In this document: one piece after another, positions 1 to 15,366 of the stretch
How positions within the stretch are numbered: the first letter of the stretch is position 1
Layout of the letters: each line of letters starts with the position of its first letter
DNA from: Escherichia coli
GTDB lineage: Bacteria > Pseudomonadota > Gammaproteobacteria > Enterobacterales > Enterobacteriaceae
Assembly: GCF_003334315.1 (NCBI RefSeq)
Contig: NZ_QOWR01000075.1
Reading direction: 5' to 3' (one strand)
Length of the DNA: 15,366 bases
Translations under genes and position numbers: made by a program
The notes under the pieces: generated by a model
The model's input: the letters and a program-made list of their open reading frames with translations, nothing else
Databases searched by the model: none
What the model was told of the DNA's origin: nothing

Positions 1-105
1 ATTATATCGAATGTGATTACAATCGGTGGCGGCGGCACAGTTGGTGTGGCGGCCTCAGTCCGGAACAATTTGAAAACAAGAACCTCGCTTAGGCCTGTGT
101 CCATA

Positions 106-483
106 TTACGTGGGTAGGATCAGATCAGGAACAGCTTTAACAGTAGCTTCTTGTTGTGTCTTGGCTTCTTGTCTAGCTTCTTCTTGTGGAATATCTACCA
201 CTTGATAGACATTAGAACTTCCTGGTCGTGCATCTTTTATAATTAACCCCATTTCGAGCAATTTCTTAACCCTTTCCTCTGCTGCTCTTGGTGTTATGCC
301 AAAAACATCGCCTATCTTAGCGTAAGAGGGAAATGCACGATCAAACCCTTTCAGATAGCAGTAAAGATTTTTAGCACTATCTGTAAATTTATGCCCGTTT
401 ACTTGGCTTATTTTTAGAATCCACATAGGAACTTTTACAAATTGTTCTTCATTAATCATTAAAAATCTCCTTGATGTAATCAC
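106..483 (-). CDS. HTH_36-like winged-helix DNA-binding protein, 125 aa (putative replication-initiator-like or regulatory protein of the element)
   Basis: ORF MITSRRFLMINEEQFVKVPMWILK...; the central segment SAKNLYCYLKGFDRAFPSYAKIGDVFGITPRAAEERVKKLLEMGLI has the pattern I associate with the HTH_36 family found in phage/plasmid Rep-like proteins. Strong RBS: the minus strand reads AAGGAGA about 7 nt before the ATG. Last gene of a tightly packed three-gene operon. Confidence 0.55.
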   Translation of the reverse strand: MITSRRFLMINEEQFVKVPMWILKISQVNGHKFTDSAKNLYCYLKGFDRAFPSYAKIGDVFGITPRAAEERVKKLLEMGLIIKDARPGSSNVYQVVDIPQEEARQEAKTQQEATVKAVPDLILPT

Positions 484-512
484 GCTCTATGGCGCTACTA
501 TGGTGATAAAAA

Positions 513-683
513 TCACTTGCTTTTATTTGAGAGTGTTTCAGCCTCTCTTTTCAACATATCAAGAATGTAATCTGTGACAGTGATACGTCTACTTCTGGCT
601 TCTTTAAATAACACCTGAAATACTTCATCAGGAATATGAAAGCAAGTGCGTGGTTGTCTTTTCTTTTCTGTAGTTTCGCTCAT
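513..683 (-). CDS. Small ribbon-helix-helix-like (CopG/Arc-type) protein, 56 aa; absent from the supplied ORF track (below length cutoff)
   Basis: Hand translation of the minus strand: MSETTEKKRQPRTCFHIPDEVFQVLFKEARSRRITVTDYILDMLKREAETLSNKSK, stop TGA (complement at 513-515). The pattern basic N-terminus, beta-strand (TCFHIPDEV), helix (FQVLFKEARSRR), helix (ITVTDYILDMLK) is RHH-like. Strong RBS AAGGAG 6 nt upstream; 19-nt gap to the upstream gene and 29-nt gap to the downstream gene. Confidence 0.35.
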   Translation of the reverse strand: MSETTEKKRQPRTCFHIPDEVFQVLFKEARSRRITVTDYILDMLKREAETLSNKSK

Positions 684-702
684 AGTTTTCTCCTTCTATT
701 CT

Positions 703-891
703 TTACTCTGTTTCAGATTCTTTTTCATTTTTTCTTAATTCATCAATAATCTTGAGTGCTTCATTGAAGCAAGCTGCTCGCTCTGGATAACCTCGACTCC
801 TTGCCATATTACGATTCATTACTATTTGGTGGCGTGTAAGCTCACCTTTTTTAAATGCCGCGACAACGTGTTCCGATGTGAACCATTTCAT
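703..891 (-). CDS. Hypothetical small protein, 62 aa; first gene of the three-gene operon
   Basis: ORF MKWFTSEHVVAAFKKGELTRHQIVMNRNMARSRGYPERAACFNEALKIIDELRKNEKESETE with a strong RBS (minus strand TAAGGAGTTTTTT then ATG). I do not recognise a family. Confidence 0.4.
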   Translation of the reverse strand: MKWFTSEHVVAAFKKGELTRHQIVMNRNMARSRGYPERAACFNEALKIIDELRKNEKESETE

Positions 892-1122
892 AAAAAACTC
901 CTTATTCAGTTAAAAGAAAAACACCTTGCAAGCCTGACGGCTTCAAAGTGCATTGATTTTGATTATTTAGAGAAGAATGTTTTTCTGTCCCTCTAATACC
1001 TATTATTACATATAAAGAAACATTTGTCAATACCTTTTCACAAAAAATCTGATCTTTTTCATGTACTTACATTTTTTCTTAGCAATTCGTGCTCTTCTGT
1101 GTAGTGCTATTCTTCCTTATTG

Positions 1123-1145
1123 TCTAAAACGCTCTAAAACGCGTT
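1123..1145. repeat. Tandem 10-bp direct repeat tctaaaacgc x2 running into the palindrome AACGCGTT
   Basis: Seen directly: tctaaaacgc at 1123-1132 and 1133-1142, followed by a degenerate third unit (gttctaacga). Lies in the non-coding region upstream of the minus-strand operon. Confidence 0.4.
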
Positions 1146-1461
1146 CTAACGAGGTTTTGATAAAAGCAATACATTCCCTTATGTAATGGCTGTTTAGCTC
1201 GCCAGAGGCTTATTTAAGGGGCTTATTTTGTATTTGTTAGGTATATGAAAAGGTGATGGTAGATATAAGATAGAGAGTCACTTTATAAAACGCTCTGTAA
1301 AGCCCTGTAGTGAGTTTATATATGTAGGCAATGCGTTTCCATTCCCTACCCTGCTTAATGCTGTTAGAGAAGCATTTAGACCCCTTATTTTTAATTACCT
1401 AAAGTATCCTCTATACATTCCTGTTATGAAACACCTCTGAATCCTTCATAAAACACATTAT

Positions 1462-1517
1462 GACGCAAAGAACACTTTTCTAAGGTGATTCCCTTCCTGA
1501 ATGCTGTTTCTTGCGTC
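1462..1517. repeat. Imperfect inverted repeat, 13-nt arms (gacgcaaagaaca ... tgtttcttgcgtc), 30-nt spacer
   Basis: Seen directly; 11 of 13 positions are complementary. Possible operator or RNA hairpin. Confidence 0.4.
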
Positions 1518-1560
1518 AAAGAGCTACACAGAGCTTATAAAGCTATTATTAATAATAAAG

Positions 1561-1620
1561 TAGACAAAGTAAGTAAGATAAGTAAGTAAGATAACTAAGA
1601 TAGATAAGATTAATAAGATC
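1561..1620. repeat. Degenerate AT-rich short tandem repeat (aagtaag / ataagat units)
   Basis: Seen directly: aagtaagataagtaagtaagataactaagatagataagattaataagatc. Confidence 0.6.
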
Positions 1621-1630
1621 AGAATTCTCT

Positions 1631-1660
1631 TTCGGTGTCGCCTCTGGCTTTTCCACCGAA
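1631..1660. other. Hairpin-forming inverted repeat ttcggtg-N16-caccgaa
   Basis: Seen directly: 7-bp perfect arms with a T-rich loop (tcgcctctggcttttc), located just before the first 42-bp direct repeat. Confidence 0.35.
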
Positions 1661-1663
1661 AAC

Positions 1664-1828
1664 AATTACACAACTACAGAGAATAACGAGAGTTATTAAA
1701 TGTAGAAAGTGGAATTGTATTGAGGCTTAGTGAAATTACACGAGGAAAGCAGAGTGTAATTGAGCTTTAGCCGCTCTCTCTTCGAGTAATTACACAACTA
1801 CAGAGAATAACAGAGTTATTAAATGTAG
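1664..1828. repeat. Pair of 41/42-bp direct repeats (aattacacaactacagagaataac(g)agagttattaaatgtag) about 124 bp apart
   Basis: Seen directly: copy 1 at 1664-1705, copy 2 at 1788-1828, differing by a single g indel. Each contains the short palindrome aataac...gttatt and is followed by similar sequence (gaaagtggaatt / gagggtaatt). Confidence 0.7.
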
Positions 1829-1917
1829 GAGGGTAATTAAGAGTTAGAGAGAGTTAACACATAAGCAATCAGTATGATTGGTTAGGTGATTACTCTTCTG
1901 CGCACAGCGCAATAGTA

Positions 1918-1960
1918 TTTCTTCGTGGGCGTTACCGCCAACGATAGTTACACGAAGAAA
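1918..1960. other. Strong stem-loop: 10-bp perfect inverted repeat tttcttcgtg / cacgaagaaa enclosing a nested ggcg-ttac-cgcc hairpin, within a locally GC-richer segment (about 1860-2075); candidate structured RNA or protein-binding site
   Basis: Seen directly. The 75-codon minus-strand ORF over this segment has no obvious RBS or protein-like composition, so I favour a structural element over a CDS. Confidence 0.4.
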
Positions 1961-2128
1961 GTAACGCTTTGCTTTCGGTGTGAGCGGAACGGGCCAGCCA
2001 CGAAGCCCAAAGGTAGCGGAGTAAGGCTGCTTGCCAGAGAGTGAAGCTAACGCCGGAAGGCAAAAGATCATATAAATAAATATATAATATTATAATTTAA
2101 TAAGTAATTTAATAAATGATCTAATAGG

Positions 2129-2262
2129 TAACAGAATTCTGTGGGGGTGTCTAACAGTTTTCTGTGGGGGTGTCTAACAGAATTCTGTTAGGGTGGGGTA
2201 ACAGAATTTTGTTAGGGTAAAAATCTCTTTAAAAGTTAAGATTAACAGAATTCTGTGGGGGG
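2129..2262. repeat. Repeat family A: palindrome (t)AACAGAATTCTGT(T) followed by G-runs (gtggggg); direct repeat ctgtgggggtgtctaacag x2
   Basis: Seen directly: copies starting near 2129, 2176, 2199 (degenerate, aattttgtt) and 2243, with a fifth at 2538. ACAGAATTCTGT is a perfect 12-bp palindrome, a likely dimeric DNA-binding-protein site. Confidence 0.7.
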
Positions 2263-2325
2263 TAGCTCACAGTGACCTACCCCCTAGTTCACTATGACCT
2301 ACCCCCCTAGGTCACAGTGACCTAT
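2263..2325. repeat. Iteron cluster 1 (family B): three roughly 21-bp units tag(c/t)tcac(a/t)(g/a)tgacctacccc; the third is the perfect palindrome AGGTCACAGTGACCT
   Basis: Seen directly: 2263-2284, 2285-2307 and 2307-2325; the palindrome is at 2309-2323. Confidence 0.7.
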
Positions 2326-2349
2326 ATAGTATAAAGAATATTATTTATA

Positions 2350-2377
2350 TTATTTAATTATAGTATTTAATTATAGT
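2350..2377. repeat. AT-rich 13-bp tandem repeat (atttaattatagt x2) in a roughly 50-bp A+T tract; candidate DNA-unwinding element
   Basis: Seen directly, lying between iteron families B and C. Iterons next to an AT-rich tract is the classical origin layout. Confidence 0.45.
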
Positions 2378-2385
2378 ATTGGTGG

Positions 2386-2483
2386 AACTCATTTCCTAGG
2401 TAGGTAGGAACTAATTTCCTAAGTAGGTAGGAAACCACTTCCTAGGTTACTTCCTAAATAGATCGGAAATCATTTCCTAGGTG
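2386..2483. repeat. Repeat family C: (a/c)tttcctagg(taggtagga) units at roughly 22-bp spacing (4-5 copies); contains the palindrome CCTAGG
   Basis: Seen directly: tttcctagg at 2392, tttcctaag at 2414, cttcctagg at 2438, cttcctaaa at 2451, tttcctagg at 2473. Confidence 0.6.
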
Positions 2484-2498
2484 TTATTTATACTTATC

Positions 2499-2535
2499 GG
2501 GTATCAGTTTTGATAGGGGTATCAGACTTGATAGG
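2499..2535. repeat. Repeat family D: gggtatcag(tt/ac)ttgatag x2 in tandem, 19-bp period
   Basis: Seen directly at 2499-2516 and 2517/2518-2535. Confidence 0.6.
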
Positions 2536-2556
2536 GGTAACAGAATTCTGTGGGGG

Positions 2557-2618
2557 TAGTTCACTATGACCTACCCCTAGTTCACTGTGAGCTACCCCTA
2601 GTTCACTGTGAGCTACCG
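2557..2618. repeat. Iteron cluster 2 (family B): three head-to-tail 21-bp units tagttcac(t)(a/g)tga(c/g)ctacc(cc)
   Basis: Seen directly: 2557-2577, 2578-2598 and 2599-2618, with exact 21-bp periodicity (two helical turns), as expected for Rep-binding iterons. Confidence 0.75.
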
Positions 2619-2712
2619 TTACATCCAATCATCTGTCGATGTAACATATCGTTACTACCAACTTTCTTACAAAGAGCATTTCAGATAGCTGAATGTAACC
2701 TCTCGTTACATC
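2617..2712. repeat. Palindrome-rich block: gttacatc-N12-gatgtaac, gtaac-atatc-gttac, and cgttacatcc repeated (2617 and 2703)
   Basis: Seen directly. Confidence 0.5.
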
Positions 2713-2729
2713 CATTTGTCACATAGCAC

Positions 2730-3210
2730 TCTGTGTAATGCCTTTCTATGTGTGTGCCATAATCCCCCTATATTCCCTGTGTAAATCATAGAATAATGCT
2801 CTCTATTCCCTGTGTAATTCCCTACTAAAAATCAATGAAAAAGTAGCTTAAAGTTGCAATTCTTACTTTCTTCACTTTTACATCACTTTCGCAAAGCCTT
2901 GTGTAATGCGGCTTACAGAGCACCATCAGAAATTGTTGGCTAAAAATTATTCTGCTTGTTTCTGAACGAGTTTTCTCGTTTGTGCAAATTTTAAAATTTA
3001 TTTTGTTTTTACAGCCTTATTTCGTGTAATGCGTGGCATAGCAAGCCCTTTTCTTGTGTTGTCAAGACATTTGGCAACGTTCAAACATCTGTTTAGAAAT
3101 GCCAAATTGTTGATCTAACAAATAAACCTGTATAAACAGAACACCATTTAATCTATTCCCCTGTGTATCCATTAGGCATACCAAATGAATACAGCTAAAT
3201 CGTGTAATAT
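2730..3210. repeat. Dispersed motif (c)tgtgtaat(g) recurring about 7 times, including the direct repeat tattccctgtgtaa x2 (2770-2818)
   Basis: Seen directly near 2733, 2779, 2811, 2901, 3026, 3161 (variant tgtgtatcc) and 3203. The region is non-coding and leads up to the recombinase gene. Confidence 0.45.
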
Positions 3211-3262
3211 TCCGTACCCATAAGGCTTGAAACAGACCAAATGAATACGGTATACTCATTTG
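3169..3262. promoter_or_regulatory. Putative res/hix-like recombinase binding region: duplicated motif cat(t/a)aggc..accaaatgaatac(a/g)g plus the palindrome caaatga-N11-tcatttg
   Basis: Seen directly: copy 1 at 3169-3194, copy 2 at 3217-3250, palindrome at 3238-3262 with the palindromic core gtatac. The location immediately 5' of a resolvase-family gene is where res sites sit in Tn3-family and plasmid resolution systems. Confidence 0.4.
3227..3256 (+). promoter_or_regulatory. Putative sigma70 promoter of the recombinase gene (-35 TTGAAA, 18-bp spacer, -10 TATACT)
   Basis: -35 at 3227-3232, -10 at 3251-3256, about 45 nt upstream of the ATG at 3302. The -10 lies inside the palindrome, which would suggest autoregulation. 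Sequence-pattern inference only. Confidence 0.35.
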
Positions 3263-3301
3263 CATTTAAGTAGTGCCAAATCGACACATTAAGAGGATTT
3301 T

Positions 3302-3841
3302 ATGAGCAATATCGGTTATAAGCGTGTGAGCACTGTAGATCAGAACACTGATCGCCAGCTTGCAGGAGTAACTCTCGATAAAGTCTTTGAAGATAAGCTG
3401 TCTGGTAAAGACACTAACCGCCCAGGCTTACAAGCGTGTTTAGCCTATCTGAGAGAAGGCGACACCTTACACGTGCACTCTCTCGACCGTTTAGGACGTA
3501 ACACCTTAGACATCCTTGCTTTAGTTGAACAACTTAATAATCGAGGTGTAATTGTTCGATTTCACAAAGAAGGAATCATTGCAGACATTACAAGCGCGAT
3601 GGGAAAGATGATGCTTACGATGTTGTCGGCAGTTGCAACGTGTGAACGTGAACTGATGTTAGAACGTAAACGAGAAGCGCAAGCCGTCAATCCTACAAAA
3701 CGTGGTAATGGAAAAGCAGTGGATCGAGAAGGTATAAAGAAAGCCCTTTCTGATGGCCTGTCAGTGCGTAAAACCGCCGAGAGCTTTAATGTTGCTCCTT
3801 CAACGGTGCAACGTATCAAGAAGGAAGAAGAGGAGGCGTAA
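3302..3841 (+). CDS. Small serine recombinase (resolvase/invertase family), 179 aa
   Basis: N-terminal GYKRVSTVDQ is the catalytic-serine motif of serine recombinases. Conserved blocks FEDKLSG, RPGL, LDRLGR and SAVATCERELMLER resemble the Tn3 TnpR, Gin and Hin layout. A C-terminal HTH is present (LSVRKTAESFNVAPSTVQRIKK). RBS AAGAGGA lies 5 nt upstream. Not identical to the Pin or Gin sequences I recall. Confidence 0.85.
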   Translation: MSNIGYKRVSTVDQNTDRQLAGVTLDKVFEDKLSGKDTNRPGLQACLAYLREGDTLHVHSLDRLGRNTLDILALVEQLNNRGVIVRFHKEGIIADITSAMGKMMLTMLSAVATCERELMLERKREAQAVNPTKRGNGKAVDREGIKKALSDGLSVRKTAESFNVAPSTVQRIKKEEEEA

Positions 3842-3850
3842 TGCCTCCTT
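3829..3850 (+). terminator. Possible hairpin at the recombinase stop (ggaggcg-taa-tgcctcc)
   Basis: 6-bp GC stem spanning the stop codon, followed by ttgatattt. Weak T-tract, so low confidence. Confidence 0.25.
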
Positions 3851-4077
3851 GATATTTGAGAATTGTCGCTGCGTGGACCTGACGGCGCTGATCTTCTCGT
3901 TAAGCGATGATCACGTATGCGCCGATTTCAGAGAAAAAGACAGTAACTGAACTCACTATGAAGGCTAAACGTATCTTTACACTTGATGAAAACGTTCAAA
4001 AAACAACCTAACCCCAAAATTCAACAAATTGCAACACATTGTTTTTAAAAGAAAATTAAATCTACATCAAATATTGG

Positions 4078-4106
4078 TTGACGTAGATTGAGGTGAATAG
4101 TAGACT
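4078..4106 (+). promoter_or_regulatory. Putative promoter for the small hydrophobic ORF (-35 TTGACG, 17-bp spacer, -10 TAGACT)
   Basis: Pattern match only; would give a leader of about 70 nt before the ATG at 4183. Confidence 0.25.
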
Positions 4107-4182
4107 ATTAGGGTAAATTACCACCCTTGTAACATCATTTAATGCATGTTCTAATCTTCCTATCGTAAAACCGGAGGAAGTT

Positions 4183-4341
4183 ATGCATTTACTTTCAAAA
4201 CATCTTCACACTATTCACTTTCTCGTTATTGATGTATTCGTTGTGGCTATTAGTTACCGCATTTGCATCGCTTCCAGTGAAGAGATGGACGCTGTTGCAA
4301 TTATTGCTCAAGCAATGGCGATATTAACTAAACGACTTTAA
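4183..4341 (+). CDS. Small hydrophobic protein, 52 aa (candidate small membrane protein or toxin-like peptide); absent from the ORF track
   Basis: Hand translation: MHLLSKHLHTIHFLVIDVFVVAISYRICIASSEEMDAVAIIAQAMAILTKRL, stop TAA at 4339-4341. Strong RBS GGAGGAAG 5-6 nt upstream. A roughly 20-residue hydrophobic stretch is consistent with one transmembrane helix. Confidence 0.35.
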   Translation: MHLLSKHLHTIHFLVIDVFVVAISYRICIASSEEMDAVAIIAQAMAILTKRL

Positions 4342-4354
4342 TAATTTCACTATC

Positions 4355-4398
4355 AGGCGCATAAACACATCTTTGATCGCTGGATGTGTTATGCGCCT
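4355..4398. terminator. Long near-perfect inverted repeat (aggcgcataaacacatc - N11 - gatgtgttatgcgcct) between the two convergent small ORFs; candidate bidirectional terminator or operator
   Basis: Seen directly: arms at 4355-4371 and 4383-4398, 16 of 17 positions paired with one bulged A. The position between convergent ORFs fits a terminator, though flanking T-tracts are weak. Confidence 0.45.
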
Positions 4399-4407
4399 AC
4401 TGGTGAT

Positions 4408-4560
4408 TCAATCCTTAAGCCATTTCAACTCACTAAGGAGTTTTCTTTCTTCGTTCTCTCGTTGCTTTCGCTCTAGCCAGGCTTTTCCCTCTGGCGTAGA
4501 CAGGAACTTACGAGCGTGAATCTTGCGGTTATTACGTTTTATAGCTGCAATGTTTTTCAT
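4408..4560 (-). CDS. Small basic protein, 50 aa, hypothetical; absent from the ORF track
   Basis: Hand translation of the minus strand: MKNIAAIKRNNRKIHARKFLSTPEGKAWLERKQRENEERKLLSELKWLKD, stop TGA (complement at 4408-4410). A possible RBS (AGAGG) lies upstream. I do not recognise a family. Confidence 0.3.
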   Translation of the reverse strand: MKNIAAIKRNNRKIHARKFLSTPEGKAWLERKQRENEERKLLSELKWLKD

Positions 4561-5166
4561 CGTGTTGCCTCTGTATTCATATGAAAATTAACAAGTTACA
4601 TACTACACAGGGAGACTACGCATAAAACACAATACAAGTAAAGATACATTTTCAAGACAATAGGAGCCATAAAGCGCCTTTGATGGTTATACCAAAAAAT
4701 AAGCGCCGTAGGCGTATCCACTAAAAAGGGCTTTTTCACAAAAGCTATGAAGTCTTAGCAGTTCTTCTCTTATCAGGCACCCGTTGTACTCCGGTGGACG
4801 AAACCGTGCTAGAGCTTGATTCTTTCCCGATCAAGTTAGGTTTTGAAGAGGTGGGCTTTAATCCACTATTGCACTTAAAACTCTTCCCATCATTTAGCCT
4901 GTTTATCCTCTGCAACGTCTCACGACGTGTAGCATCATTGGACACCGCGCCAGGTGTGGAACATCTTGCTAAGAGTTTTGGTAGAAGGTTTAGAGACGGT
5001 GGCACGTCTTCCAGCTTCAAAGGAACTTGTTACGAGGTTGAGCCTGGGAACTACTCGCCCATACGTGTTACACTACCAAAGCCCATAACAACGTATAGGC
5101 GTTTGTAAGTGATAACAGAAGATACAATTTCTTAGAGAAGTTAAGCTAAGTTATTGATTTTCTTGA

Positions 5167-5242
5167 TGGTGCCGATAATAGGAGTCGAACCTACGACCTT
5201 CGCATTACGAATGCGCTGCTCTACCAACTGAGCTATATCGGC
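5167..5242 (-). tRNA. thrW: tRNA-Thr (anticodon CGU), thrW-like
   Basis: The minus strand reads GCCGATATAGCTCAGTTGGTAGAGCAGCGCATTCGTAATGCGAAGGTCGTAGGTTCGACTCCTATTATCGGCACCA: cloverleaf features, anticodon loop TTCGTAA, encoded CCA. It sits downstream of proA as in E. coli. Confidence 0.95.
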
Positions 5243-5356
5243 CCTGAAAGGACATGTTCACGAACGTGAATCACGGTGGACAAGGTTAAAACTAACCGGG
5301 CGATGCGTCAATGGCCTTGTGAATCAAATGGCTACTTTTGCATCACCCGGTTTTAT

Positions 5357-6610
5357 TTACGCACGAATGGTGTAATCACCAATGCCGATCCACTTGTAAG
5401 TGGTCAGTGCTTCCAGCCCCATTGGGCCACGCGCGTGGAGTTTTTGTGTGCTTACCGCCACTTCCGCACCCAGACCAAACTGGCCGCCGTCGGTAAAACG
5501 CGTAGAGGCGTTAACGTAAACAGCGGACGAATCCACTTCGTTAACAAAACGCTGGGCGTTGCGCATATCGCGGGTCAGGATCGCATCGGAGTGTTGTGTG
5601 CCGTGTTCACGAATATGGGCGATGGCATCGTCAAGATCGCTGACGATTTTGACGTTCAAATCTAATGACAGAAACTCATCGTCATACTCTTCGGCTTTAA
5701 CAGCAACCACCTTCGCAGGGCCTGCCTGCAACTGCGCCAGTGCAGCTGCATCTGCGTGTAATGTCACGCCGCTTTCCGCCATTTGTTTGCTTAATGCGGG
5801 CAGGAAGCTATCGGCGATGTTTTTATTCACCAGCAACGTTTCAACCGTATTACATGTGCTCGGACGCTGAGTTTTCGCGTTGACGATCACTTTTAATGCT
5901 TCAGCGATCTCTACACTTTCATCAACGTAAATATGGCATACGCCTATACCACCTGTGATCACCGGGATTGTCGACTGTTCACGGCACAGTTTATGCAAAC
6001 CAGCGCCACCACGCGGGATCAGCATGTCGATGTATTTATCCATACGCAGCATTTCACTGACCAGCGCACGGTCAGGATTATCAATCGCCTGCACGGCACC
6101 CGCCGGTAAGCCACAGGATTTCAGGGCGTCCTGAATCACCGCCACCGTTGCCGCGTTAGTGCGACAGGTTTCTTTGCCACCACGCAGGATCACCGCATTA
6201 CCGGTTTTCAGGCACAGCGAAGCGACATCAACCGTCACGTTCGGGCGCGCTTCATAAATCACGCCAATAACCCCCAGCGGTACGCGACGACGCTCAAGAC
6301 GCAGGCCGCTGTCCAGTACGCCGCCATCGATTACCTGCCCCACCGGATCGGCGAGGTTACACACCTGGCGTACATCGTCGGCAATGCCTTTCAGCCGTGC
6401 GGGCGTCAGTGCCAGACGGTCAAGCATCGCTTCGCTAAGGCCATTGGCTCGCGCGTCAGCAACATCCTGGGCGTTAGCGTTGAGGATGATTTCGCTTTGT
6501 GCTTCCAGTTCATCGGCGATTTTTTCCAGCACGCGATTTTTTTCGCGGCTGGAGAGTTGCGCTAATTTATACGAGGCTTGCTTCGCGGCAATGCCCATTT
6601 GTTCCAGCAT
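5357..6610 (-). CDS. proA: Gamma-glutamyl phosphate reductase (glutamate-5-semialdehyde dehydrogenase), 417 aa
   Basis: Full-length [40 protein letters not shown]... recognised as E. coli ProA, immediately downstream of proB (11-nt gap). Confidence 0.97.
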
Positions 6611-6621
6611 CAGCCTGCTCC

Positions 6622-7725
6622 TTAACGGGTAATCATGTCATCACGGTGAACGGCAACCGGGCCGTATTCATATCCCAGTATTGCATCAATTTCTTGCGAG
6701 TGGTGTCCGGCAATACGGCGTAATGCATCGCTGTTGTAACGACTGACACCGTGGGCGATATCGCGACCTTCGAGGTTGCAAATGCGGATGACTTCACCAC
6801 GCGAGAAATTGCCAGTCACGCTTTTAATGCCTTTCGGCAACAGGGAGCTGCCGCGTTCAAGAATGGCGGCAGTTGCCCCTTCATCTACCGTGATTTCACC
6901 CGCCGGCGGCGCACCGAAAATCCAGCGTTTACGGTTTTCAAGCGGAGTCGCCTGGGCATGGAACAGCGTACCGACGGAAATGCCTTCCATCACATCACCA
7001 ATAACGCCCGGCTTGCTGCCCGCGGCAATAATGGTGTCGATACCCGCACGGCAAGCCACGTCAGCGGCCTGCAATTTGGTACTCATGCCGCCAGTTCCGA
7101 GGCCTGAAACGCTGTCACCGGCAATCGCGCGCAGTGCGTCATCAATGCCGTAAACATCTTTAATCAGTTCTGCCTGCGGATTGCTGCGCGGGTCAGCGGT
7201 ATACAAACCTTTTTGATCGGTCAGCAGCAACAGTTTATCGGCACCCGCAAGAATCGCCGCCAGCGCAGAAAGGTTATCGTTATCGCCGACCTTAATCTCT
7301 GCCGTAGCGACAGCATCGTTCTCATTGATTACCGGAACGATATTGTTATCGAGCAACGCTCGCAGGGTGTCGCGGGCGTTCAGGAAGCGTTCACGGTCTT
7401 CCATATCAGCACGGGTCAGCAGCATTTGCCCGACGTGAATGCCATAAATCGAAAACAGCTGTTCCCACAGTTGAATCAGTCGACTCTGCCCTACCGCCGC
7501 CAGCAATTGTTTCGAGGCGATAGTCGCTGGCAGTTCCGGGTAACCCAGGTGCTCACGTCCGGCGGCAATCGCGCCCGACGTCACAATAACAATCCGATGC
7601 CCGGCGGCATGTAACTGCGCGCACTGGCGAACAAGTTCAACGATATGGGCACGGTTCAGACGGCGCGATCCGCCTGTTAGCACACTGGTGCCGAGTTTTA
7701 CCACCAGCGTCTGGCTGTCACTCAT
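6622..7725 (-). CDS. proB: Glutamate 5-kinase, 367 aa
   Basis: The ORF track opens at 7812, but the ProB N-terminus [19 protein letters not shown] begins at the ATG whose complement is at 7723-7725. A C-terminal PUA-like region is present. Confidence 0.95.
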
Positions 7726-13134: not shown

Positions 13135-13692
13135 TTATCCTTCGATAAAAGCCATCCCTGTAAATGTCCGTCGCGGGTTGCCACGTTCAATCTGGTGATG
13201 GAACATTCGCCGCTGCGATTTCAGCGCCGCGCTATTTTCCTGTTGCTGCTGCTCCAGCTTCCAGGCAATCAGCAATCGCGCCAGCCGTTTGTTAGCATGC
13301 TGGCTGCGCTCTGACTGAACCTTCACGCTAATACCGGATGCCAGATGCGTGGCGCGTACCGCCGAGTCGGTTTTATTGACATGTTGACCGCCCGGCCCCG
13401 ACGAACGCAGCGTCTCATAACGGATTGCATCCGATTGTTCCTTCTCATCAGCGGTAAAACGCCCAATGCCCAGAAACCAGTTTTTGCGCCCATGATGAGG
13501 CCGATACGGACTCGGACAAATCCACTGAATAGTGCCACACCAGCTTTCGCTTAATGCCCATGCGTTATCGCCATCCAGAGAAACCAGCGCCGAACGCAGC
13601 GTGTCAGAGTAGCGGCCCGTTTCTGTTTCCAGCACCGTTACAGCGACGTCTTGTCGGGTAAAAACGACCAACAGAGAAGAACGCTGCGCCAA
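13135..13692 (-). pseudogene. prfH: Peptide chain release factor homolog PrfH, 5'-truncated or fused remnant
   Basis: The ORF contains the release-factor GGQ motif ([20 protein letters not shown]). Its 5' end overlaps, in another frame, the end of an RtcB-like fragment, consistent with the deletion-fused rtcB'-prfH' remnant known from E. coli K-12. Whether the product is functional cannot be told from sequence alone. Confidence 0.7.
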
Positions 13693-13870
13693 TCGGGTAG
13701 CCGCGTCCGGGGTGTAAATCTGGCATCCCCACTACGCGCTGCATGTTGGGTAAATTTGCCGTGGTGTGTAATTGTTGGATCGCTAAACTCTCGATCCACA
13801 GGTCATCAGATGCGATGGTAAATACCGCATCGGATAAGGGACGAATATATTTGCCCATGTACCATTCCAT
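13604..13870 (-). pseudogene. ykfJ: RtcB-like RNA ligase N-terminal fragment (ykfJ-like remnant)
   Basis: The 88-codon [67 protein letters not shown]... resembles the RtcB N-terminal region (MPD.H.G.G..IG), then runs into out-of-frame prfH sequence at about 13655-13660. Far shorter than an intact RtcB. Confidence 0.6.
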
Positions 13871-14050
13871 TTATACTCGTCATACTTCAAGTTGCATGTA
13901 CTGCGACTCGAATTATTTAGAGTATATAAATATAAAAATCAGGAAATGGCAGACGAATCCAGGGCAAGAAAAAAAGAATTAATCCTGGAAAGGTCTGCAA
14001 AGAGTCATTGATAAAGGATTTGTCATGATTTACCTCCTTGCAGTTTGTGG

Positions 14051-14090
14051 AATAAGAAAACGCGCACATACCAGGCGGGCGTTATTTTCA
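14051..14090 (-). terminator. Weak candidate terminator downstream of yafP
   Basis: Short hairpin aacgc-N15-gcgtt (14059-14083), followed on the minus strand by TTTTCTTATT. Low confidence. Confidence 0.25.
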
Positions 14091-14103
14091 TTGCAAGCTG
14101 GAT

Positions 14104-14556
14104 TTAATATTGCGGTTTATATCGCATATAAAAATTAGTAAACCACGTTCCCCGGCATTCAACGCGCTGCTGCTTAACTGTCTGAAAACCATAACGTTCA
14201 AAAAAGGGTTTTGCGGTTATGCTGGCGTCCACCGTAAGTTCGGATTCAGACTTAATCAAAGGTTTTAACAAAGCGCAGGCAACCCCGCGGCGGGTGTATT
14301 CAGGGTCAACAAATAACATATCGATATAACGTTCAACGCAGGTAATAAAACCAACCGGTTGTGCATTAATGACGGCAACCCGCACTTGTGATTTCGCGAG
14401 TTTCTCCTTCCAGCGAGATTCGTCAATCTGCGCCCAGGCGGCAATTTGTTGTGGTGAATAATGCTGACTGGAGATCATCGTAACCGCTCTAATGAAAATA
14501 GCGCATAGTTGCTGAAAATCGCCAGGCTGATAGTCTCTTATTTGTATGTTATTCAT
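14104..14556 (-). CDS. yafP: GNAT-family N-acetyltransferase, 150 aa (YafP-like)
   Basis: ORF MNNIQIRDYQPGDFQQLCAIFIRAV... with an acetyl-CoA-binding-like segment (RRGVACALLKPL); 10 nt downstream of yafO, as in the dinB-yafN-yafO-yafP operon. Confidence 0.8.
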   Translation of the reverse strand: MNNIQIRDYQPGDFQQLCAIFIRAVTMISSQHYSPQQIAAWAQIDESRWKEKLAKSQVRVAVINAQPVGFITCVERYIDMLFVDPEYTRRGVACALLKPLIKSESELTVDASITAKPFFERYGFQTVKQQRVECRGTWFTNFYMRYKPQY

Positions 14557-14565
14557 AATATAAAT

Positions 14566-14913
14566 TCAAAAACGCATGCGAAACGCTTCTGCCATTTTCC
14601 CAATTTTATGCATTTGGTTGTTATCTCGAGCCTGTTTATGAGGTTCAGGTTTCAGAATGGCAATGAGCAACCATGCTTGCTCATCAAACGCACCCTGACA
14701 ATATACCAAATGCGCTTCGTCATTCGTTCTGCTGAATTGGCGCAACTGTGGCGGAAATGGATTATTCACATTTGCCAGATGAATATGAGCAACTCGCTCA
14801 AATTTGATTAATGGCCAGGTAAACGAGTCGTCGTAGAGTGCATCGCGACCAAATATATCTGGCAAAACACCGTCACGCTTATAGGAAATAAAATCCGCCG
14901 TTAACGCATCAAG
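14566..14913 (-). pseudogene. yafO: YafO-family toxin gene (type II toxin of YafN-YafO) interrupted by IS1; about 16 N-terminal codons lie beyond the insertion
   Basis: The reading frame continues upstream of the track ORF (...LDALTADFISYKRDGVLPDIFGRDALYDD...) right up to coordinate 14913, where the IS1 terminal repeat begins at 14914. There is no in-frame ATG in the retained part; the track ORF starts at TTG. Confidence 0.8.
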
Positions 14914-15366
14914 GGTAATGACTCCAACTTATTGATAGTGTTTTATGTTCAGATAATGCCCGATGACTTTGTCATGCAGCTCCACCGATTTTGAGAACGA
15001 CAGCGACTTCCGTCCCAGCCGTGCCAGGTGCTGCCTCAGATTCAGGTTATGCCGCTCAATTCGCTGCGTATATCGCTTGCTGATTACGTGCAGCTTTCCC
15101 TTCAGGCGGGATTCATACAGCGGCCAGCCATCCGTCATCCATATCACCACGTCAAAGGGTGACAGCAGGCTCATAAGACGCCCCAGCGTCGCCATAGTGC
15201 GTTCACCGAATACGTGCGCAACAACCGTCTTCCGGAGACTGTCATACGCGTAAAACAGCCAGCGCTGGCGCGATTTAGCCCCGACATAGCCCCACTGTTC
15301 GTCCATTTCCGCGCAGACGATGACGTCACTGCCCGGCTGTATGCGCGAGGTTACCGACTGCGGCCT
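14914..15366 (-). mobile_element. IS1 insertion sequence, partial (runs off the window end); terminal inverted repeat GGTAATGACTCCAACTTATTGAT at 14914-14936
   Basis: Sequence from 14914 recognised as the IS1 end adjoining the insB C-terminus; the encoded protein ends ...[13 protein letters not shown]. Confidence 0.95.
14929..15366 (-). CDS. insB: IS1 transposase InsB reading frame (C-terminal part; 5' end outside the window)
   Basis: Open frame to the window edge: ...[64 protein letters not shown]...HYQ, recognised as IS1 InsB. In IS1 the transposase is made as an InsAB' frameshift fusion. Confidence 0.9.

Follow-up and report, generated by a model that had tools for sequence, protein, structure and literature searches.

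GTGTAAT repeats as candidate dispersed binding sites in the control region of a capsid-encoding integrative element at thrW in Escherichia coli

The stretch of Escherichia coli DNA analysed here (the window; 15,366 nt) carries the chromosomal genes prfH, pepD, gpt, frsA, crl, phoE, proB and proA, and its positions 123-5166, to the left of a tRNA gene, belong to an integrated element, of which they form the right part. The complete element measures about 12.3 kb in relatives and encodes a tyrosine integrase, a Dit-like tail protein, a 609-aa protein, a lambda-E-type major capsid protein and small ORFs, followed by a lambda-O-like HTH initiator, two small genes, about 2.4 kb of gene-free DNA, a small serine recombinase and the attachment end at thrW. 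The features of this part of the window are as follows.

106 to 891, minus strand: start of a leftward operon, encoding a 62-aa three-helix protein (703-891), a 56-aa ribbon-helix-helix protein (513-683) and the initiator (106-483).
1662 to 1960, mostly minus strand (four copies minus, one plus): second cluster of the motif described below, with a 28-bp palindrome AATTACAC-N12-GTGTAATT at 1734-1761.
2129 to 2711, no strand: presumed replication origin, with iteron families, AT-rich tracts and TGTAAC/GTTACA palindromes (2618-2645, 2693-2711).
2800 to 3004, no strand: module D, the universal noncoding block.
3162 to 3194, no strand: 33-bp palindrome TGTGTATCCATTAGG-CAT-ACCAAATGAATACAG, a putative recombinase dimer subsite with a size like that of a 'site II'.
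3227 to 3256, plus strand: predicted sigma-70-type recombinase promoter, TTGAAA-18-TATACT.
3238 to 3262, no strand: 25-bp palindrome CAAATGA-N11-TCATTTG, overlapping the recombinase promoter.
3302 to 3841, plus strand: small serine recombinase of 179 aa, with a Resolvase N-terminal domain including the catalytic-serine motif and a C-terminal HTH.
5167 to 5242, minus strand: tRNA-Thr(CGT), thrW, the integration point of the element.

The lambda-O-like initiator gene is truncated at about position 123 and encodes 125 aa, compared with 189-239 aa in relatives. The first 122 nt of the window match the end of Escherichia phage phi467 at 100% identity and the ends of PPompW-type prophages at about 81%, and the E. 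coli relatives of the element align from position 123 onward only; another prophage appears to have been joined to, or inserted in, the element at this point. With its initiator gene cut short, this copy of the element is probably replication-defective. At the other side, positions 13135-15366 depart from the related locus L003: prfH encodes 185 aa against 204 aa there, and L003 has an RtcB-family gene after prfH that the window lacks. At the right window end yafO is shortened to 99 aa, and a fragment of an IS1 transposase lies at 14929-15306.

The conserved block of the element is present in 740 of 5426 complete E. coli genomes, and outside Escherichia the conserved region occurred in none of the genomes searched. 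A DNA search of 401 genomes of the family returned one real match, in the same genus, a scan of species genomes with the capsid protein returned one locus, in Escherichia, and homologues of the 62-aa protein were found in Escherichia only. Related copies also adjoin thiM (L012 and L017), cas3 (L016) and sopAB on an IncF plasmid. In the last case (L001; plasmid pEND_Eco 19019-1, NZ_CP126938.1), a module of small ORFs, noncoding DNA and recombinase, interrupted by an IS3 element, lies beside sopAB on a conjugative plasmid. Identity with the O157 Sakai prophage Sp1 (CP-933H) at thrW was rejected, since Sp1 is a different lambda-like remnant. Our literature search found no paper on this element or its motif, and the family seems to be undescribed. 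Two segments resemble phapecoctaviruses: about 80 nt after the recombinase stop (3850-3928) share about 83% identity with a site that lies in a gene-free stretch of 1.5 kb in many of these phages (phAPEC8, ESCO13, ZCKP1 and others), and the initiator fragment at 129-500 is 91-96% identical to a gene of the phapecoctaviruses Mt1B1_P17 and BI-EHEC. Such similarity may point to exchange with these virulent phages of 150 kb, or to a dependence on them. Despite the two similar segments, GTGTAAT is absent from the phapecoctavirus stretches that were fetched, and we rejected the idea that it is a regulatory word of a helper phage.

The 2.4-kb noncoding control region is a mosaic of exchangeable modules, and positions 2730-3210, on which this analysis centres, lie in its right part. 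Module A (739-1303) is universal and carries the leftward promoter, module B (1303-2100), with the left motif cluster, occurs in some lineages only, and the iteron module varies. Module D is 76-86% identical in every lineage, whatever the iterons or the type of recombinase, and its core (2866-2892) is nearly invariant; the final 300 nt or so of the noncoding region travel with the recombinase gene. The recombinase cassette (3004-4410) is likewise exchangeable, and in several elements 3174-4410 is replaced by unrelated, recombinase-less DNA (the loci listed for cassette exchange are L085, L053, L056, L061, L066, L081, L011 and L015). Within the nearly invariant core, three ACTTTY hexamers (ACTTTC, ACTTTT and ACTTTC) follow one another 10-11 nt apart at 2864-2890, a helical phasing that suggests a protein on one face of the DNA. 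An Rfam scan of positions 1-5400 returned the tRNA only.

A preliminary description of this DNA had reported that the octamer tgtgtaat recurs about seven times on the same strand, with irregular spacing, in the noncoding lead-up to the recombinase gene. Indeed, seven copies were recovered on the plus strand of 2730-3210 and none on the minus strand, with gaps of 46, 33, 89, 123, 139 and 39 nt between successive copies. The exact octamer TGTGTAAT accounts for only three of them (starts 2732, 2811 and 2900), the others being CGTGTAAT (starts 3023 and 3201, with the GTGTAAT core at 3024 and 3202) and the one-mismatch forms TGTGTAAA at 2778 and TGTGTATC at 3162; GTGTAAT itself is therefore present five times. 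The copies are distributed as follows.

2732 to 2739, plus strand: copy 1, TGTGTAAT, in the context gcactcTGTGTAATgcc, at the junction of the variable iteron module and the conserved block.
2778 to 2785, plus strand: copy 2, TGTGTAAA, in the first unit (2768-2787) of a 33-bp duplication.
2811 to 2818, plus strand: copy 3, TGTGTAAT, in the second unit (2801-2820) of the duplication, at the left edge of the universal block.
2900 to 2907, plus strand: copy 4, TGTGTAAT, where the universal block is most conserved, as part of an imperfect palindrome TGTAA-N6-TTACA (2902-2917).
3023 to 3030, plus strand: copy 5, CGTGTAAT, in the part specific to the cassette of the 179-aa recombinase, to the left of the res-like site.
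3162 to 3169, plus strand: copy 6, TGTGTATC, at the outer end of the left half-site of the 33-bp palindrome.
3201 to 3208, plus strand: copy 7, CGTGTAAT, within the res-like region, to the right of the 33-bp palindrome and ahead of the -35 of the recombinase promoter.

The longer repeat that had been seen twice is present as described: tattccctgtgtaa occurs twice within a 20-nt repeat (2768-2787 and 2801-2820) whose units are 90% identical and 33 nt apart, and a third near-copy, TCTATTCCCCTGTGTATCC, lies at 3152-3170. Copies 2 and 3 thus constitute a local 33-bp tandem duplication. The flanks of five copies are unrelated, so these five are not simple duplicates. In terms of the modules, copies 1 and 2 lie at the left junction of module D, copies 3 and 4 inside it, copy 5 in cassette-specific sequence and copies 6 and 7 next to the gene. 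Rather than one homogeneous array, the seven copies are of mixed kinds.

To assess whether local AT-richness would account for the repeats, we compared their number with shuffled and simulated backgrounds. GTGTAAT is expected 0.10 times on one strand of the same 481 nt, and none of 1000 first-order Markov simulations contained it at least five times. When the post hoc choice of the word was corrected for, any 7-mer reached five copies in 1 of 2000 simulations and any 6-mer reached six copies in 2 of 2000, whereas an exact 8-mer at three copies is unremarkable on its own (100 of 2000). On both strands of the whole window, 13 occurrences of GTGTAAT were counted against 2.06 expected from dinucleotide shuffles, and within 2600-3300 the TGTAA core occurs 14 times on both strands against 3.4 expected, an excess of about fourfold; the chromosomal part of the window showed no excess of TGTAA or of the motif. 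The motif is real and non-random, with an informative core of 6-7 nt and a pyrimidine-rich 5' flank.

The motif also extends beyond 2730-3210. A second cluster of five copies lies at about 1662-1960, with GTGTAAT on the minus strand at 1665, 1735 and 1789 and on the plus strand at 1754, and GTGTAAC on the minus strand at 1947. It includes two 24-nt repeats beginning AATTACACAAC (1664 and 1788) and two near-palindromes, GTGWAATTWCAC and the 28-bp one at 1734-1761. A position matrix built from the motif copies, whose consensus is approximately YYCYYGTGTAAT with a pyrimidine-rich 5' flank, gave high scores (15 bits or more) within the 15-kb window in the two clusters only, at 1662-1960 (mostly minus strand) and 2726-3033 (plus strand), and the same restriction to two clusters was found in a related locus of 29 kb. 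The two clusters point away from each other and bracket the iterons, the two AT-rich tracts and the TGTAAC/GTTACA palindromes. The iterons are tandem units of 21-25 bp at 2129-2619; the motif has no such regular tandem spacing and is, as the preliminary description had held, distinct from them. An invertible segment between the clusters was considered and rejected, as all of the roughly 45 related loci run colinear with the window and none gives mixed-strand matches.

Where a lineage is without the left module, it keeps just two or three copies of the motif. Three loci of this sort (L013, L014 and L010) carry other dispersed 8-mers in the counterpart of window positions 1303-2700, namely AATAGATT in 5-6 copies, TCGTTAGA in 3-5 and ATTGCACA in 3-4, and every lineage may carry scattered recognition words of its own. 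A GC-richer segment of about 230 nt (1840-2075, plus strand) has a predicted RNA fold of -81 kcal/mol (z = -4.26 against shuffles; z = -2.48 for the minus strand) and is about 98-99% conserved among 15 distinct relatives; their differences include several single-base indels that would shift the frame of a called 75-aa ORF. The segment has no Rfam match and is not annotated as coding in RefSeq relatives; it is a candidate for a noncoding RNA or a structured DNA element beside the origin.

Comparison among relatives suggests that the motif is probably under constraint. Eleven of 66 motif columns are variable compared with 754 of 2342 other noncoding columns, and the mismatch rate is 0.041 in the motif and 0.092 elsewhere; since the 35 distinct relatives compared are not independent, these figures overstate the support, and the column comparison argues modestly for constraint. 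At 1666 and 2812 the motif is retained where the flanks have diverged, and 29 of 35 relatives have an unchanged GTGTAA core at copy 3, where the mismatch rate is 0.029 against 0.14 in the flanks. Copy 5 is intact in all 13 aligned relatives, as are all five copies of the second cluster in 15 of 15. Copy 4 (2900) is conserved no better than neighbouring positions of its block and, because that block is conserved as a whole, its conservation is uninformative on the octamer. In several lineages copies 3 and 4 carry G-to-A changes (TATGTAAT). Both clusters are intact in the recombinase-less elements L053, L056, L061, L066, L081 and L085.

The protein encoded next to the right cluster has a resolvase fold. 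Its best solved match is gamma-delta resolvase (E 4e-29), with Tn3 resolvase also among the closest, although the PHROGs label of its family is 'DNA invertase'. Elements of this family carry a recombinase of 179 aa or one of 183 aa (63% identical, each with an upstream site of its own), or none. The 25-bp palindrome recurs, together with its -35 and with GGCTTG in front of the palindrome, 5' of four related recombinases in unrelated contexts (L038, L089, L090 and L091; proteins 67-83% identical). Across these four loci the words GTATTCA and CAAATGA are conserved and GTGTAAT is not; L038 and L089 have a homologous palindrome of the 33-bp type with ATGT ends, and their counterparts of copies 6 and 7 retain only a TGTA core (that of copy 7 reads TTGTAAAC). 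In the 183-aa lineage there is a 32-bp palindrome, GTGTAGTGATAAAG-CAGG-CTAAATCACCACAC, with GTGT ends, and a further site, GGTGTGTAAAGGAC.

Given the promoter, the palindromes shared with relatives and the resolvase fold, we read 3162-3262 as probably the res/operator region of the recombinase, to which copies 6 and 7 would belong. Within the control region, this segment alone lies directly upstream of the resolvase gene and overlaps its promoter, and inverted pairs of half-sites of about 12 bp, spanning the 25-34 bp of a res subsite, are found in its two palindromes. The motif as a whole is not compact as a res site of about 100-130 bp would be, since it stretches over 477 bp (2732-3208), with the further cluster at 1662-1953. 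Copies 1, 2, 3, 5 and 7 have no inverted partner at such a spacing, and copy 4 has one only in TGTAA-N6-TTACA, over 16 bp. CCAAAT units are restricted to 3069-3281, and the distal copies are without the CCAAAT/CATTWGG inner part of the clear half-sites. Two of the seven copies appear to be explained by the resolvase's res site.

From these patterns we infer that a protein binds the motif at all, which protein that would be and what its binding would do. Tentatively, and with clearly less than even confidence, we take the GTGTAAT copies to be oriented recognition sites, of mixed kind, for one or more DNA-binding proteins, with the HTH of the recombinase as the single most likely binder. Dimers of the recombinase would bind the res-like site that includes copies 6 (3162) and 7 (3201), resolve multimers of the replicating element and repress their own promoter. 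Copies 1-5 and the five at 1662-1953 would form two opposed clusters flanking the iterons and AT-rich tracts of the origin, as half-site-like 'landing' sites with the consensus YYCYYGTGTAAT; their binder would be the C-terminal HTH of the recombinase, some other protein of the element being nearly as likely. The preliminary description had spoken of clustered binding sites for an unknown factor. Enrichment, strand bias, the inverted second cluster and the less variable columns speak for putative sites, although these are of mixed kinds and include the duplication of copies 2 and 3. Since the res-like site of the neighbouring recombinase includes copies 6 and 7, their factor is probably not an unknown one, whereas for the other copies there are several candidate binders.

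That the recombinase also binds the copies beyond 6 and 7 is a possibility we regard as somewhat doubtful. It is suggested by the GTGT/ATGT outer ends of its sites, by a shared recognition helix and by a flank common to copies 2, 3 and 6. The HTH of gamma-delta resolvase, in its complex with site I (PDB 1GDT), reads the outer 6 bp or so of each half-site (TGTCYR); the outer ends of the clear half-sites here read (G/A/C)TGT(A/G)(T/G) in both lineages, and both recombinase types share the recognition helix TVQRIKKE and the arm KRGNGKA. On their 5' side copies 2 and 3 agree with copy 6 (CTATTCCCTGTGTA in the former, CTATTCCCCTGTGTA in the latter), and CTATTCCC(C)TGTGTA is common to all three. The reading is weakened by the missing inner part of the half-sites, by the scarcity of inverted partners and by the persistence of the clusters where the recombinase is absent. 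Resolvases, moreover, bind inverted pairs within about 120 bp, not lone sites spread over 480 bp and 1.5 kb.

We give some probability, as a minority view, to the distal copies and the left cluster being operators for another protein of the element, the 62-aa or the 56-aa ribbon-helix-helix protein, which would control promoters or origin firing on both sides. The extended consensus, with its pyrimidine-rich 5' flank, is asymmetric and unlike the recombinase half-sites, the near-palindromes of the left cluster would suit a dimer, TGTAAT occurs in the -10 region of the leftward promoter, and the clusters are kept where the recombinase gene is absent. The 56-aa protein is predicted to resemble Arc and CopG (Foldseek probability 0.9-0.98), but L012 keeps the left cluster without the ribbon-helix-helix gene. 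Of the two variants of the 62-aa protein, one is found together with the left module; this may reflect linkage within an adjacent haplotype block, and lineages with the other variant still have the two copies of the universal block. The model of the 62-aa protein is a confident three-helix bundle with no structural neighbour of E below about 3, so DNA binding by it is neither supported nor excluded. Rather unlikely, in our judgement, is that most copies are functionless debris of local duplication and module shuffling, derived from a res half-site fragment and the TGTAAC palindromes. The mosaic of swappable modules, the 33-bp tandem duplication that made copies 2 and 3 with a flank matching copy 6, the exact 8-mer count that is within chance at the 5% level, the conservation of copy 4 no better than that of its block and the G-to-A changes (TATGTAAT) at copies 3 and 4 would all be in keeping with such an origin. 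Debris would not, however, be expected to show a strand bias of 7:0 and an opposed second cluster, nor five copies with unrelated flanks, nor motif columns half as variable as the rest with survival at 1666 and 2812 between strongly diverged flanks.

Two further explanations seem improbable to us. The seven copies share the strand of rightward transcription, and the word could act in RNA, within a long rightward leader or noncoding transcript, or as a promoter element, copy 4 alone perhaps being an activator site of the P2 Ogr / P4 Delta type for a promoter switched on by a helper. TGT-N12-ACA is exact at 2900-2917, with -10-like hexamers about 40-45 nt downstream in both lineages, and the TGTAA/TTACA pairing of copy 4 is kept by paired changes in L056 (TGTAG/CTACA) and a single, wobble-type change in L064 (TGTAG/TTACA). 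Yet the conserved block has no consensus RNA structure on either strand, the 2890-2925 hairpin is as stable as its shuffles (z = 0.11), TGT-N12-ACA fits one motif copy only and the left cluster is on the opposite strand; TGTAAT is also a poor -10 hexamer, with no A at position 2. Equally slight is the chance that a host protein, be it a nucleoid-associated protein, a regulator or a replication factor, reads the motif. Two copies are conserved in all lineages despite variable element proteins, and opposed polar clusters are formally like Tus-Ter fork traps, but the noncoding region has no match to the Ter core GTTGTAAC, a DnaA box, the IHF consensus or a LexA box, and the chromosomal part of the window has no excess of the motif. 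To our knowledge, the motif fits no consensus spacing of CRP, TyrR, the GalR/LacI family, CpxR or OmpR, which we offer as a lead rather than a test.

If the sites are functional, with the recombinase as their preferred reader or another protein in its place, they would define part of the cis-acting control region of a widespread and apparently uncharacterised element that combines a capsid gene, a lambda-O-like initiator, a resolvase and a 2.4-kb noncoding mosaic. Once the reader of GTGTAAT is identified, it would become apparent how replication, multimer resolution and perhaps exploitation of a helper are coupled in such elements, and there would also be a sequence signature with which to find relatives. 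If the copies are only debris of a res site, the finding is an ordinary one. There is also an outside chance, hardly greater than that of an RNA or host-protein role, of something new: opposed clusters of an asymmetric site of about 12 nt (YYCYYGTGTAAT), set on either side of the origin and read by a protein not so far recognised (e.g. the orphan 62-aa one), could constitute a cis-acting system that confines replication or couples it to resolution or packaging, through polar barriers or handcuffing across the origin, in a family of capsid-encoding integrative elements of about 12 kb that is restricted to Escherichia and seems undescribed.

Several known systems offer partial parallels. An invertible segment of the Hin/Gin/Pin type differs from this region, which has a single orientation in about 45 related loci. 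The late promoters activated by P2 Ogr or P4 Delta have a TGT-N12-ACA dyad about 55 nt upstream of the start; copy 4 (2900-2917) is the only copy with this dyad, and no Ogr- or Delta-like gene was seen in the element. Operator arrays of ribbon-helix-helix proteins (omega, CopG, Arc, ParG), which have at least two short subsites side by side and the gene of their protein close at hand, come to mind since such a protein is encoded at 513-683, but the motif copies are not adjacent to each other and L012 keeps its cluster without this gene. Tus-Ter shares asymmetric sites with a TGTAA core in two clusters of opposite polarity; here, however, the clusters flank an origin rather than a terminus, no Tus-like gene was seen in the element, and the Ter core has no match in 1-5166, its only match in the window lying inside proB at 6733. 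Classical iterons of plasmids and phages are likewise repeated words near an initiator gene and AT-rich tracts, but they are tandem units of 17-25 bp, whereas the motif is short and irregularly spaced (33-139 nt) and true tandem iterons adjoin it at 2129-2619. In the satellite phage P4, octamer 'type I iterons' (word TGTTCACC) in ori and in the distant crr are bound by the alpha protein. The likeness lies in an 8-bp word irregularly repeated in two separate clusters in the replication-control region of a small, phage-related integrative element; the word is a different one, the initiator here is a lambda-O-like HTH protein instead of the alpha primase-helicase, and separate iterons of 21-25 bp are present. 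Like the res sites of Tn3 and gamma-delta, 3162-3262 lies directly 5' of a resolvase-fold recombinase of 179 aa and over its predicted promoter, has 33- and 25-bp palindromic subsites whose half-sites carry TGT-like outer ends, and keeps this architecture among relatives of the recombinase. Unlike those res sites, three canonical subsites cannot be delimited here, and only copies 6 and 7 fall within the site of about 100 bp, with five single copies on the same strand 130-530 nt further upstream and five more 1.3-1.6 kb away on the other strand. Set beside these systems, the copies of the motif are candidate sites of a known kind, namely the dispersed binding sites of a mobile-element control region.
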